Source of the DNA: a virus
Taxonomy: Duplodnaviria; Heunggongvirae; Uroviricota; Caudoviricetes
Direction: 5' to 3' (one strand)
Virus record (IMG/VR): IMGVR_UViG_2534681663_000014
Length of the DNA: 4,781 nucleotides
The position numbers were made by a program, and so were the translations under genes. Position 1 is the first letter of the stretch; the number at the start of each line of letters is the position of its first letter. The notes under the pieces were generated by a model, which was given only the letters and a program-made list of their open reading frames with translations, searched no databases and was not told the origin of the DNA. Below are positions 1-4,781 of the stretch, in pieces.

Positions 1-1428
1 CTGGGGAACTACAGGCTGACAGTCCGGGCAGTAAATGCGTGGGGGCAGCAGGGCGATCCGGCGTCGGTATCGTTCCGGATTGCCGCACCGGCAGCGCCGT
101 CGCGGATTGAGCTGACGCCGGGCTATTTTCAGATAACCGCCACGCCGCATCTTGCGGTTTATGATCCGACGGTACAGTTTGAGTTCTGGTTCTCGGAAAA
201 GCGGATTGCGGATATCAGGCAGGTTGAAACCACAGCACGCTATCTTGGCACGGCGCTGTACTGGATAGCCGCCAGTATCAATATCAAACCGGGCCATGAT
301 TATTACTTTTATATCCGCAGTGTGAACACCGTTGGCAAATCGGCATTCGTGGAGGCTGTTGGTCAGCCGAGTGATGATGCATCCGGCTATCTGGATTTTT
401 TCAAAGGCGAGATAGGGAAAACCCATCTGGCTCAGGAGCTGTGGACGCAGATTGATAACGGTCAGCTTGCGCCTGACCTGGCTGAAATCAGGACGTCCAT
501 TACGGATGTCAGCAATGAAATCACACAGACCGTCAATAAGAAACTGGAAGACCAGAGTGCAGCGATCCAGCAGATACAGAAGGTTCAGGTTGATACAAAT
601 AATAATCTGAACAGCATGTGGGCTGTGAAGCTGCAGCAGATGCAGGACGGACGCCTTTATATTGCGGGTATCGGTGCCGGTATTGAGAATACGCCAGCAG
701 GAATGCAGAGTCAGGTGCTGCTGGCGGCAGACAGGATTGCGATGATTAATCCTGCGAATGGCAACACAAAACCGATGTTTGTTGGTCAGGGTGATCAGAT
801 ATTCATGAATGAAGTGTTCCTGAAATATCTGACGGCTCCCACCATTACCAGCGGCGGTAATCCTCCGGCATTTTCCCTGACACCGGACGGAAAGCTGACC
901 GCTAAAAATGCAGATATCAGTGGCAGTGTGAATGCGAACTCCGGGACGCTCAACAACGTCACGATTAATGAGAACTGTCAGATTAAGGGGAAACTGTCAG
1001 CCAACCAGATTGAAGGCGATATTGTCAAAACAGTGGGTAAGGCTTTCCCGCGGGACTCCCGGGCACCGGAGCGGTGGCCATCAGGGACCATTACCGTCAG
1101 GATTTATGACGATCAGCCGTTTGACCGGCAGATTGTTATTCCGGCGGTGGCATTCAGCGGTGCTAAACATGAGAGAGAGCATACTGATATTTACTCCTCA
1201 TGCCGCCTGATAGTGAAGAAAAATGGTGCTGAAATTTATAACCGTACCGCGCTGGATAATACGCTGATTTACAGTGGTGTTATTGATATGCCAGCTGGTC
1301 ACGGCCACATGACGCTGGAGTTTTCGGTGTCAGCATGGCTGGTAAATAACTGGTATCCCACAGCAAGTATCAGCGATTTGCTGGTTGTGGTGATGAAGAA
1401 AGCCACTGCAGGCATCAGTATCAGCTGA
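1..1428 (+). CDS. J: Tail-tip host-specificity protein J (lambda gpJ family), C-terminal ~475 codons; 5' end lies upstream of the window
   Basis: Frame 1 is open from base 1 to TGA at 1426-1428; the ORF track starts at 322 only because that is the first in-frame start (GTG). The translation ([30 protein letters not shown]...[41 protein letters not shown]...[33 protein letters not shown]...) is recognisably lambda J from memory. J-lom-stf gene order matches lambda. No frame disruption anywhere in this 1428 bp. Confidence 0.9.
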
Positions 1429-1446
1429 ATTTTATAACCCAGATAC

Positions 1447-1473
1447 GGGCGCCAGAAATGGCGCCTTTTTTAT
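1447..1473 (+). terminator. Rho-independent terminator-like hairpin just downstream of J
   Basis: Perfect palindromic GC stem GGCGCC (1448-1453) / GGCGCC (1460-1465) with a 6-nt loop AGAAAT, followed directly by TTTTTT (1466-1471) then ATT. Begins 19 nt after the J stop codon. Confidence 0.6.
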
Positions 1474-1495
1474 TGCAGAAAAGCGAGAGGTAATT

Positions 1496-2093
1496 ATGCG
1501 TAAAGTTTGTGCAGCCATTTTGTCCGCAGCCATTTGTCTGGCCGTATCCGGTGCGCCTGCATGGGCGTCTGAACATCAGTCCACGCTGAGCGCGGGGTAT
1601 CTTCATGCCCGGACGAACGTTCCCGGCAGTGATGATCTGAACGGGATTAACGTGAAATACCGTTATGAGTTTACGGACACCTGGGGATGGTGACGTCTTC
1701 AGCTATGCAGGAGACAAGAATCGCCAGCTTACCCGTTACAGCGATACCCGCTGGCATGAAGATTCCGTGCGTAACCGCTGGTTCAGCGTGATGGCGGGAC
1801 CGTCTGTGCGCGTGAATGAATGGTTCAGCGCGTATGCGATGGCGGGTGTGGCTTACAGCCGTGTGTCGACTTTCTCCGGGGATTATCTCCGCGTAACTGA
1901 CAACAAGGGGAAAACGCACGATGTGCTGACCGGAAGTGATGACGGTCGCCACAGCAACACGTCTCTGGCGTGGGGGGCTGGCGTGCAGTTTAATCCGACC
2001 GAATCCGTGACCATTGACCTTGCTTATGAAGGTTCCGGTAGTGGCGACTGGCGAACGGATGCATTTATTGTTGGTATCGGATACCGTTTCTGA
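1496..2093 (+). pseudogene. lom: Lom outer-membrane protein (Ail/Lom/OmpX-type beta-barrel family); reading frame broken by two apparent 1-nt deletions near 1680 and 1698
   Basis: ATG at 1496 preceded by RBS GAGAGG (1485-1490). N-terminus MRKVCAAILSAAICLAVSGAPAWA is a typical signal peptide, then [38 protein letters not shown], recognisably lambda Lom. This frame stops at 1691-1693. The Lom-like reading continues as LGMVTS in another frame (1681-1698) and then as [56 protein letters not shown]...GIGYRF in a third frame to TGA at 2091-2093. Total length 598 bp is not a multiple of 3. Confidence 0.85.
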
Positions 2094-2196
2094 CAACAGA
2101 CGCCGATTTATCTTCTGTAAATATTGTTATGATACGCAGGTTCATCCACCTTATGGGGTGAACTGCGTTTGAGGAAACGTAAAGTTACACTGTCCT

Positions 2197-2231
2197 GAAG
2201 CCCGTGGCGTCACTGCTGCGGGCTTTTTTTA
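2197..2231 (+). terminator. Terminator-like hairpin with U-tract between lom and stf
   Basis: Stem AAGCCCG (2198-2204) pairs with CGGGCTT (2219-2225) around a ~14-nt loop, followed by a run of seven T (2224-2230). It lies ~105 nt after the lom stop and 14 nt before the stf ATG. The loop is longer than in a textbook terminator, so confidence is moderate. Confidence 0.45.
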
Positions 2232-2244
2232 TTGGTGGAAAAGT

Positions 2245-3639
2245 ATGACAGTAAAAATTTCTGGCGTGCTTAAAGATGGCACAGGAAAACCAGTACAGAA
2301 CTGCACCATTGTGCTGAAGGCCAGACGAACTAGCAGCACGGTGGTGGTGAACACGGTGGCCTCTGAAAATCCGGATGAAGCCGGACGTTACAGCATGGAT
2401 GTTGAGCATGGTCAGTACAGCGTCACCCTGCTGGTTGAAGGTTTTCCGCCTTCACATGCCGGGACCATTACCGTCTATGAAGGTTCCAGACCAGGTACGC
2501 TGAATGATTTTCTCGGTGCCATGACGGAGGATGATGTCCGACCGGAGGCACTGCGCCGCTTTGAGCAGATGGTGGAAGAGGTGTCACGTAACGCCTCCGC
2601 GGTTGCACAGAATACGGCAGCCGCGAAAAAATCAGCCAGCGATGCCAGTGCATCAGCCAGCGAGGCGGCAACTCATGCAACCGATGCTGCAGCCTCAGCA
2701 CGTGCCGCCAGCACGTCAGCCGGACAGGCCGCGTCGTCGGCTCAGTCAGCGTCTTCCAGCGCAGGAACGGCATCAACAAAGGCTACTGAAGCATCAAAAA
2801 GTGCTGCCGCTGCAGAGTCCTCAAAAAGCGCGGCGGCTACCAGTGCCGGTGCGGCGAAAACGTCAGAAACGAATGCTGCAGCGTCACAACAATCAGCAGC
2901 CACTTCTGCATCCACCGCGACCACGAAAGCGTCAGAAGCTGCCACCTCAGCCCGGGATGCGGCGGCCTCAAAAGAGGCAGCGAAATCATCAGAAACGAAC
3001 GCATCATCAAGCGCCAGTAGTGCCGCTTCCTCGGCAACGGCGGCAGGCAATTCCGCGAAGGCGGCAAAGACGTCCGAGACAAACGCCAGGTCTTCTGAAA
3101 CGGCAGCGGGACAGAGCGCCTCGGCTGCGGCAGGCTCAAAAACAGCGGCTGCGTCGTCTGCCAGTGCCGCGTCAACAAGTGCCGGGCAGGCCTCAGCCAG
3201 TGCCACCGCGCCGGAAATCGGCAGAAAGGCCGCATCGTCTGCTTCAACAGCCACAACGAAGGCTGGCGAAGCCACTGAACAGGCCAGCAGCAGCGAGGTC
3301 TGCTTCCGCAGCGAAGACATCCGAACGAACGCGAAAGCGTCGGAAACCAGCGCAGAATCCTCAAAAACGGCTGCCGCATCGTCGCCAGTTCGGCGGCGTC
3401 ATCGGCATCATCGGCGTCTGCTTCAAAAGATGAGGCGACCAGACAAGCGTCGCAGCGAAGGGCAGCGCCACGACGGCATCCACGAAGGCGACAGAGGCAG
3501 CTGGCAGTGCGACGGCGGCAGCCAGAGCAAAAGTACGGCGGAATCCGCGGCAACGCGCGCGAGACAGCGGCAAAACGGGCAGAGGATATTGCATCCGCCG
3601 TGGCGCTTGAGGATGCGAGCACGACGAAAAAGGGGATAG
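2245..3639 (+). CDS. stf: stf fragment as it stands (N-terminal domain plus Ala/Ser-rich rod); authentic frame is kept only to ~3288, later residues are mostly out-of-frame
   Basis: ORF-track ORF of 464 aa. Its tail ...PVRRRHRHHRRLLQKMRRPDKRRSEGQRHDGIHEGDRGSWQCDGG... is Arg/His-rich wrong-frame sequence interspersed with short correct-frame stretches (TNAKASETSAESSKTAAASS, SQSKSTAESAATRA). Confidence 0.6.
   Translation: MTVKISGVLKDGTGKPVQNCTIVLKARRTSSTVVVNTVASENPDEAGRYSMDVEHGQYSVTLLVEGFPPSHAGTITVYEGSRPGTLNDFLGAMTEDDVRPEALRRFEQMVEEVSRNASAVAQNTAAAKKSASDASASASEAATHATDAAASARAASTSAGQAASSAQSASSSAGTASTKATEASKSAAAAESSKSAAATSAGAAKTSETNAAASQQSAATSASTATTKASEAATSARDAAASKEAAKSSETNASSSASSAASSATAAGNSAKAAKTSETNARSSETAAGQSASAAAGSKTAAASSASAASTSAGQASASATAPEIGRKAASSASTATTKAGEATEQASSSEVCFRSEDIRTNAKASETSAESSKTAAASSPVRRRHRHHRRLLQKMRRPDKRRSEGQRHDGIHEGDRGSWQCDGGSQSKSTAESAATRARQRQNGQRILHPPWRLRMRARRKRG
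2590..3560 (+). repeat. Low-complexity Ala/Ser/Thr/Lys/Glu-rich rod region of Stf with recurring degenerate units of the type AAKTSETNA
   Basis: Frame-1 translation is almost entirely A/S/T/K/E/Q/G, with recurring units AAKTSETNAAAS, AAKSSETNASSS, AAKTSETNARSS, NAKASETSAESS. The DNA is GC-rich (GCN/AGC/TCN codons) and open in nearly all six frames. Confidence 0.7.
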
Positions 3640-4199
3640 TACAGCTCAGCAGTGCGACCAACAGCACTTCCGAGTCACTGGCGGCAACGCCAAAAGCCGT
3701 TAAGGCCGCGTATGACCTGGCTAACGGGAAATACACCGCACAGGATGCAACGACAGCACAGAAAGGGATAGTCCAGCTAAGCAGTGCGACCAACAGCACG
3801 TCTGAAACGCTGGCGGCAACGCCAAAGGCAGTAAAATCAGCCTATGACAATGCAGAGAAACGTCTGCAGAAAGACCAGAACGGCGCTGATATACCCGATA
3901 AGGGACGCTTCCTGAACAACATTAACGCGGTCAGTAAAACAGACTTTGCTGATAAGCGTGGTATGCGTTATGTGCGAATTAGCAACGGTAACCATGCCAC
4001 AGGCGAGTTCCATCGTTTACATCGCATTGATTGGTGGCGCTGGTTACAACGTCGGTTCCCCACATCAGGCAGGCATTTCAGAACTGGTTCTACGAGCAGG
4101 CAATGGAAACCCCAAAGGAATTACCGGGGCTTTGTGGAAGCGTACAGCCGTCGGATTAACGAATTTCGCCTGGATCAACACATCCGGCGATACATATGA
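3507..4199 (+). CDS. stf: stf middle fragment as it stands; authentic frame from ~3561 to ~4010 (AKRAEDIASAVALEDASTTKKGIVQLSSATNSTSE...DKRGMRYVRISNGNHATGEF)
   Basis: ORF-track ORF starting at GTG 3507. The first ~18 codons and the last ~60 codons (RLHRIDWWRWLQRRFPTSGRHFRTGSTSRQWKPQRNYRG..., Arg/Trp-rich) look out-of-frame; the central part is typical tail-fibre sequence. Confidence 0.6.
   Translation: MRRRQPEQKYGGIRGNARETAAKRAEDIASAVALEDASTTKKGIVQLSSATNSTSESLAATPKAVKAAYDLANGKYTAQDATTAQKGIVQLSSATNSTSETLAATPKAVKSAYDNAEKRLQKDQNGADIPDKGRFLNNINAVSKTDFADKRGMRYVRISNGNHATGEFHRLHRIDWWRWLQRRFPTSGRHFRTGSTSRQWKPQRNYRGFVEAYSRRINEFRLDQHIRRYI
3630..3848 (+). repeat. Two in-frame copies of a conserved tail-fibre motif KGIVQLSSATNSTSE(S/T)LAATPKAVK(A/S)AYD, period 132 bp
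   Basis: Copy 1 at ~3630-3716 (aaggggatagtacagctcagcagtgcgaccaacagcacttccgag...), copy 2 at ~3762-3848 (aaagggatagtccagctaagcagtgcgaccaacagcacgtctgaa...). About 85% nucleotide identity by eye, separated by a 15-codon spacer. Confidence 0.85.
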
Positions 4200-4781
4200 T
4201 ATTTACGTTGAGATTGGCAATTATGCGACGAGTGTAAATATCCATTGGGATTGTACTGCAAATGCGTCAGTTTCTGTTTATACCTCGCCAACATATTCAG
4301 CGAGTAAGCCTTCCAGCGTTACCTATGGTGTTGTTTATACGATGTATAGCTCACATCAGAAACCTACACCATCAGATATTGGAGCACTGCCAACAACCGG
4401 AGGAACAGTTTCAGGTCCGTTGTCTGTTACAGGTGGATTAACTGGTTCATTGAATGGTAATGCAAGTACAGCCACGAAATTGCAGACGGCAAGATCTATC
4501 GGTGGAGTTGTTTTCGACGGTTCTGCAAATATTAACCTTCCAGGTGTAAACACTACGGGTAATCAGAACACCACTGGTAATGCTGCAACTGCTACAAAAC
4601 TTCAGACTGCAAGAAAAATATCCGGTGTTCCATTTGATGGTTCTACTGATATCACTTTAACCGCCGCGCATGTGGCTGCTTTTGCCAGAAGGGCAACGGA
4701 TACATATGCCGATGCGGATGGTGGCGTTCCCTGGAATGCCGAATCAGGCGCTTACAATGTCACCCGCTCTGGCGACAGCTA
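3970..4781 (+). CDS. stf: stf distal fragment (frame 1), open to the window end; carries the tail-fibre repeats
   Basis: Frame 1 is open from the stop at 3913-3915 to base 4781; it is absent from the ORF track, apparently because it has no stop inside the window. In-frame starts are TTG 3946, GTG 3958, ATG 3970. Translation ...GGAGYNVGSPHQAGISELVLRAGNGNPKGITGALWKRTAVGLTNFAWINTSGDTYDIYVEIGNYATSVNIHWDCTANASVSVYTSP...HQKPTPSDIGALPTTGGTVSGPLSVTGGLTGSLNGNASTATKLQTARSIGGVVFDGSANINL...GNAATATKLQTARKISGVPFDGSTDITLTAAHVAAFARRATDTYADADGGVPWNAESGAYNVTRSGDS. Probably not an independent gene but the continuation of stf after a frame change near 4000-4025. Confidence 0.65.
   Translation, partial: MCELATVTMPQASSIVYIALIGGAGYNVGSPHQAGISELVLRAGNGNPKGITGALWKRTAVGLTNFAWINTSGDTYDIYVEIGNYATSVNIHWDCTANASVSVYTSPTYSASKPSSVTYGVVYTMYSSHQKPTPSDIGALPTTGGTVSGPLSVTGGLTGSLNGNASTATKLQTARSIGGVVFDGSANINLPGVNTTGNQNTTGNAATATKLQTARKISGVPFDGSTDITLTAAHVAAFARRATDTYADADGGVPWNAESGAYNVTRSGDS
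4456..4659 (+). repeat. Two copies of a phage tail-fibre repeat (GNA-S/A-TATKLQTAR-x-I-x-GV-x-FDGS-xx-I-x-L), period 120 bp
   Basis: Frame-1 copy 1 GNASTATKLQTARSIGGVVFDGSANINL (4456-4539); copy 2 GNAATATKLQTARKISGVPFDGSTDITL (4576-4659). Matches the classic tail-fibre repeat family from memory. Confidence 0.8.

Follow-up and report, generated by a model that had tools for sequence, protein, structure and literature searches.

Gene J of a lambdoid prophage is a four-block mosaic with a 1A2-class tip that most likely recognises OmpC rather than LamB

The window, i.e. the whole stretch of 4,781 nucleotides that was analysed, opens with the 3' part of gene J, and we found this part to be a mosaic of four blocks rather than a protein that is conserved throughout and diverges at the tip alone. 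The product is most likely a recombined lambdoid prophage fibre that ends in a receptor-binding tip of the 1A2 class, with OmpC and not LamB as the probable porin. Both the receptor and the set of accepted OmpC variants most likely follow those published for a tip that is 94.8% identical to the one in the window. The likely range would thereby include most natural E. coli OmpC variants, e.g. that of the O157 strain EDL933, and not the one of K-12.

By pairwise alignment, the J translation could be placed end to end on residues about 685-1131/1132 of lambda J. The window holds the last 42% of J, and the 5' about 58% to two thirds of the gene lies outside it; the full-length gene and the upstream tail genes are present in the close relatives PhiR55_1 and E. 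coli Z247. Four Pfam models matched above their curated cut-offs, namely Ig_J (aa 1-30, a match shortened by the start of the window), Ig_J_second (aa 32-134), Phage_Tail_Tip (aa 188-316) and Ig_GpJ_C, described as the "C-terminal receptor binding domain" (aa 345-475, E = 1.4e-37), and no Pfam model covered aa 135-187. Two Ig/fibronectin-like domains, a Phage_Tail_Tip stem and a C-terminal receptor-binding Ig domain thus follow each other as in lambda J. The lambda gene order J, lom, stf was likewise found, with a lom homologue and stf downstream on the same strand (Table 1). Searching the sequences in the PDB with J returned A8 gpJ713 (9wca) as the best match (E = 5.4e-190) and lambda gpJ at E = 1.8e-185.

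Just 3' of the J stop codon, a consensus scan, which yields a pattern match only, picked up a terminator-like hairpin with an 8-pair stem (6 G-C pairs) followed by TTTTTATT, and in the record of phage 434 a terminator is annotated in the corresponding position 3' of J. A second terminator-like hairpin with a T run is situated at 2197-2236, after lom; the two hairpins found in all compare with a shuffled expectation of 1.1. The whole window (1-4781) was matched at more than ~96% by no E. coli complete genome or phage record. Individual blocks of it match at 98-99% in E. coli complete genomes or phage records. In a scan with one genome per species, an exact 52-mer of the tip occurred only in Escherichia albertii NBRC 107761, the locus being 94.7% identical overall.

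Table 1. Positions of genes, J blocks and the hairpin after J in the window, with lambda J residues given where a block was compared to them.
Feature	Nucleotides	Residues of J	Strand	Remarks
3' part of gene J (tip attachment protein / central tail fibre)	1-1428		+	475 codons (1-1425) and stop codon (1426-1428)
Block 1, end of the first and whole of the second fibronectin-like domain	1-375	1-125	+	120/125 (96%) identical to lambda J 685-809
Block 2, alpha-helical shaft and top of the beta-prism fibre/stem	376-780	126-260	+	55/135 (41%) identical to lambda J 810-916
Block 3, lower beta-prism fibre/stem	781-975	261-325	+	59/65 (91%) identical to lambda J 917-981
Block 4, neck and Ig-like receptor-binding domain	967-1425	323-475	+	1A2 allele class
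Terminator-like hairpin and T run	1447-1476		+	Pattern match
lom homologue	1496-2095		+	Frameshifted into ORFs 1496-1693 and 1665-2093
stf (side tail fibre)	from 2245		+	Frameshifted; from DNA alignment to intact stf

According to the original prediction, the translation follows lambda J closely up to a divergent end of about 130 residues, and a plot of identity along the alignment was proposed as a check. When this comparison was made, the C-terminus proved far less conserved than aa 1-125, although the string that had been quoted as divergent is in fact 153 residues long (nt 967-1425), with 43.1% identity over 153 aligned positions. Closeness to lambda in the upstream part was borne out for aa 1-125 (96%) and aa 261-325 (91%), but not for aa 126-260, a second divergent block at only 41%, which is as divergent as the tip and carries 21 + 7 extra residues. 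Counted as identical/non-identical positions, the four blocks amount to 120/5, 55/80, 59/6 and 64/85 (chi-square 134, p = 7e-29), the last figure referring to aa 326-475 against lambda J 982-1131 (64 out of 149, 43%). Within block 2, identity to lambda in bins of 30 residues drops to 0.07-0.47, and the additional residues, 28 in total, are located at ~nt 454-516 (21) and ~nt 526-546 (7). The five scaffold motifs DIVK, WPSGT, FDRQIV, DMPAG and GIS, which were said to be kept in the tip, were all seen in both the window and lambda J in the alignment.

At the DNA level, blastn gave 92.4% identity to lambda over 1-445 of the window. Block 3, lambda-like as a protein, is yet only about 77% identical as DNA, and 990-1428 had zero lambda match by blastn. 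The receptor-binding tip is an old allelic replacement and not a product of drift.

Domain names for the shaft and stem are those of Ge and Wang (PMC11101478). Lambda gpJ, solved in a closed (8xck) and a LamB-bound (8xcj) form, shares with the window J the order of its domains, close identity in the fibronectin-like (96%) and lower-stem (91%) parts, and a tip that agrees in its Ig-like fold and its scaffold motifs. The two are unlike in their tips, which are 43% identical, with LamB as the lambda receptor, and in the helical shaft, where lambda is shorter by 28 residues and identity is only about 41%. For aa 101-330, an AlphaFold2 model placed helices at aa 128-152 and 158-205; with a mean pLDDT of 45 this is weak evidence, to be read as helix prediction only.

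More than one pairing of shaft and tip types was found among protein-database homologues. The window-type shaft is joined to a 1A2-type tip in P0032 and P0018, as in the window itself, and to an A8-type tip in P0113 and P0045. P0047 has a lambda-type shaft with an A8-type tip, and a third shaft type was found with both tips (P0022, P0021; P0112). The joins between shaft and tip fall in near-invariant stem sequence with one K/R-variable position; correspondingly, the columns of block 3 are invariant or near-invariant among homologues, and this stretch is common to all allele classes. We propose that J would have been built by recombination of interchangeable modules, i.e. lambda-type fibronectin-like domains, a longer non-lambda shaft, a conserved stem and a tip of the 1A2 class.

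The tip was assigned to a class by tblastn of its 153 residues against 50,697 phage records, which fell into discrete classes. At 89-96% identity stand PhiR55_1, many Stx2a phages, WGPS2, JLK-2012, PPompW and VT1-Sakai (57 records with the tip core as query), followed by a class at 61-65% with 1H12, ev017, 4A7, Stx1 phages and phage 1717. Lambda is found at 43%, and phage 434, WGPS6 and cdtI at 41-43%. Over the 153-residue tip, identity was 96.1% to PhiR55_1, 94.8% to 1A2 (P0007-type), 67.1% to A8, 44.7% to phage 434 and 43.1% to lambda. The comparison with J tips of known receptor, which had also been suggested as a check, thereby gave the OmpC users 1A2 (94.8%) and A8 (67%) as the closest. 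The tip does not belong to the lambda class (common to lambda, HK630, O276 and similar phages), as it has 43.1% identity over 153 residues and is without DNA match beyond 989.

Between the window and 1A2, 145 out of the 153 tip residues are identical and the lengths are the same, with no indels, where the 1A2-type allele is the database protein P0007, whose C-terminus matches every in-frame stretch of the 1A2 DNA, and the identity refers to these in-frame stretches only. The published 1A2 DNA is a machine-read PDF supplement with dropped bases, such that its direct translation is frameshifted and its tblastn matches are broken. Written from window to 1A2, the eight differences are QIK to RVL, DIVK to DLVK, VRI to VRV, HEREH to HEKEH, IVKK to IVRK and GISIS to GITIS. 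All are conservative, and four are situated in the neck (QIK and DIVK in the window, RVL and DLVK in 1A2), outside the Pfam receptor-binding domain. The segment with the HEREH/HEKEH difference varies in length and may be a contact loop. At the position used for the published grafts, the window and 1A2 have an identical conserved stem sequence; unlike the window J with its long shaft of non-lambda type, the published 1A2 chimera keeps the shaft of lambda.

While the core of the domain is of the 1A2 type, the neck (SGSVNAN...) is identical to that of A8. On sequence grounds, the neck variants of the window are compatible with OmpC use because of this identity. The likeness to gpJ of A8 (9wca, closed; 9wcb, open, on OmpC G17 of E. 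coli EDL933) also includes the fold, for which it is the best structural match, and the A8 receptor is OmpC. The A8-class core, on the other hand, is not that of the window, as the tips are 67% identical, the short HEREHTDIY loop of the window is replaced by the long HENFNSNNQQSYWY in A8, and A8 has a shorter PRTNSYASG segment after FPR; only the neck is A8-type. A third group, the tip class of phage 434, WGPS6 and phi330 (PMC12502783), resembles the window in that its lambdoid J proteins end in an Ig-like tip, and its members are OmpC users on K-12, but identity is only 41-45% and the lengths of the variable segments differ.

Structure prediction, as originally proposed and here made for the last 192 residues, agreed with the class assignment. 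The AlphaFold2 monomer is of moderate confidence, with a mean pLDDT of 72 and values of 75-96 over the receptor-binding domain. The best Foldseek matches of this tip model were 9wca and 9wcb (E = 1e-17), then 8xck and 8xcj, down to 9e-16 and with probability 1.00, and the remaining matches had E values above 1e-4. The monomer model superposes on the solved gpJ tips, as predicted for an Ig-like/jelly-roll gpJ tip fold.

The receptor assignment draws on work in which the J C-termini of natural E. coli prophages were fused to lambda J at residue 964, i.e. in the stretch of block 3 (Brödel et al., Nature 2024, PMC11338833). Grafts of 1A2 and A8 redirect lambda particles from LamB to OmpC (PMC11338833), and both need plasmid-borne ompC to deliver DNA into a strain deleted for lamB and ompC (PMC11338833; also 10.1101/2025.02.28.640725). 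For 1A2, the source data list at least 76% delivery on 20 out of 23 natural OmpC variants (PMC11338833). The three failures are G1 (MG1655; 2%), G2 (1.5%) and G40 (0.9%) (PMC11338833), G1 being taken as the MG1655 OmpC since the source data give identical values for it and for the OmpC-MG1655 panel (PMC11338833). Wild-type MG1655, which is LamB+, was entered by 1A2 at only 5.2% at an MOI of 50 (PMC11338833). K-12 OmpC is accepted by A8 and not by 1A2 (PMC11338833). The EB003 vector likewise makes use of the 1A2 tip (bioRxiv 10.1101/2025.02.28.640725), and PDB entry 9wcb shows the A8 fibre bound to the OmpC of EDL933.

The divergent tip had been suggested to recognise either another receptor than LamB or another allele of LamB. 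The former is favoured by the homology to gpJ of 1A2 (94.8%) and A8 (67%), and the latter finds no support, given the poor entry of 1A2 into a LamB+ strain. A tip that still binds LamB, in an allele other than that of K-12, would indeed share its fold and scaffold motifs with the LamB-binding domain of lambda, and OmpC resembles LamB in being a trimeric beta-barrel porin; however, identity to the lambda tip is only 43%, the variable-length segments differ, and the 94.8%-identical tip of 1A2 works in a lamB deletion given a suitable OmpC while hardly entering LamB+ MG1655 (5.2%, MOI 50), which makes this reading extremely improbable.

OmpC as the porin is consistent with the hosts recorded for phages of the same class. 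Out of the 57 phage records with the tip core of the window, none lists a K-12 host, and the isolated phages that carry this core were propagated on E. coli C (PhiR55_1, PhiR5_1) or ECOR13 (PhiR46_1, PhiR47_1, PhiR49_2, PhiR40_1). All phage records with MG1655 as host belong to other tip classes. The preprint using the PhiR phages that share the tip is silent on an outer-membrane receptor. A 2026 receptor-prediction preprint was set aside as a source, since it deals with Drexlerviridae-type GpJ and not with lambdoid tips. Among users of OmpC, K-12 OmpC is used by phi330, whose closest relative is WGPS6 of the 434-type tip class (PMC12502783), unlike the 1A2 class. Altogether, an experimentally shown OmpC user is present in three out of the four tip allele classes compared, and the use of LamB by lambda is therefore the exception.

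Even with a porin as receptor, the eight substitutions and the A8-type neck could still set the window apart from 1A2, by shifting the range of OmpC variants (e.g. towards that of K-12) or by turning the tip to OmpF or another outer-membrane protein. A few point mutations are enough to give lambda J the use of OmpF (PMC11101478), the accepted OmpC variants differ between 1A2 and A8, and the window pairs an A8-type neck with a 1A2-type core. Such a shift is nevertheless unlikely, as all eight differences are conservative (I/V, I/L, K/R, S/T and, in the neck, QIK against RVL), four lie outside the Pfam domain, and the haplotype belongs to a protein cluster of 1940 database sequences, formed at 99% identity over the last 192 residues, because of which we regard the tip as a mainstream member of its class. 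A more specific possibility, to which we give only a small chance, is that the combination of long shaft, A8 neck and 1A2 core could alter either the accepted OmpC variants or the relay of the signal up the fibre. We retain OmpC, with a range like that of 1A2, as the most likely reading.

The way in which the window J is triggered can most likely be modelled on the structures of related tips. By analogy to the solved lambda and A8 fibres, the three Ig-like tip domains would insert loops into the extracellular mouth of a trimeric porin, and the binding of the porin would spread the lower ends of the three domains. This movement would then pass to the beta-prism stem and on to the helical shaft, unlocking the fibronectin-like domains and opening the tail tip (analogy; PMC11101478). 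Upon binding, residues 841-861 of the lambda shaft change from a helix into a beta-sheet (PMC11101478). The stretch of the window that aligns to lambda 841-861 is unrelated to it in sequence, and the shaft of the window exceeds that of lambda by 28 residues.

Compared to the J gene of PhiR55_1, that of the window has 54.5 synonymous and 13.5 non-synonymous differences, i.e. a dN/dS of 0.07 (0.02-0.10 in each block), and because of this ratio we consider the frame to have been under purifying selection over its history. The two downstream genes appeared in a different state. In lom, two single-base deletions near 1681 and 1699, 18 bp apart, were identified against PhiR55_1 and the lom of E. coli complete genomes; the surrounding 1560-1830 of the window aligns to its best genome matches as 271 against 273 nt at 98.5%, with two gaps and two mismatches only. 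For stf, comparisons were made by DNA alignment, since the low-complexity Ala/Ser repeat of this region left tblastn of Stf proteins with hardly any match. In its Ala/Ser-rich part at 3210-3560, ~ten deletions, all of a single base except for one of 2 bp, are found within 350 bp, none of them in the best-matching complete E. coli genomes. The stretch measures 501 nt against 511 nt in intact genes and is 97.8% identical, almost without substitutions.

These frameshifts bear on the possibility that J is a remnant in a decaying prophage whose tip is without present function, a possibility that concerns activity and not domain identity. Decay could account for the two 1-bp deletions in lom, the ~ten more in stf and an out-of-frame junction in the latter, but J has an unbroken frame of 1425 nt and a dN/dS of 0.07, and nearly all differences between the frameshifted stretches and intact E. 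coli genes are single-base deletions, substitutions being rare. Because the deletions are clustered, of single bases and accompanied by few substitutions, the pattern suggests sequencing or assembly error rather than decay as the cause of the lom and stf frameshifts, and we consider it very unlikely that J is such a remnant.

At ~3854-3975, stf contains a short replaced segment, AYDNAEKRLQKDQNGADIPDKGRFLNNINAVSKTDFADKRGMRYV..., which reads in one frame, after which the frame changes. In the second frame, a stretch identical to the Stf of E. coli Z247 (...LATVTMPQASSIVYIALIGGAGYNVG...) follows, and this frame is open to the end of the window at 4781. Judged by this arrangement, the segment looks like an out-of-frame junction of two Stf types. 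The repeat region at 2550-3750 has a G+C content of 0.60-0.64 and an A-over-T skew of 0.26-0.49, and long spurious ORFs occur on both strands within it, e.g. 2837-3799 and, on the minus strand, 2742-3320, as expected for an Ala/Ser/Thr-rich repeat.

The tip is widespread. Among E. coli complete-genome records, 262 match its DNA (970-1431) at 99% or above, and 3364 out of 5426 E. coli genomes have a match that spans 80% of this DNA or more. This class of tip is already known, in that it is common, functionally characterised, bracketed by solved relatives and exploited in engineered particles. Among the J tips of E. coli prophages, the 1A2 class is the commonest, and the finding is accordingly of small weight as a discovery but useful as annotation. 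For a lambda-like prophage with this J, adsorption to OmpC rather than LamB would be predicted, and K-12 laboratory strains would probably not be infected. Lastly, the LamB specificity of lambda appears untypical among lambdoid J tips, whose allele classes exchange shaft and tip modules via the conserved sequence of the stem.
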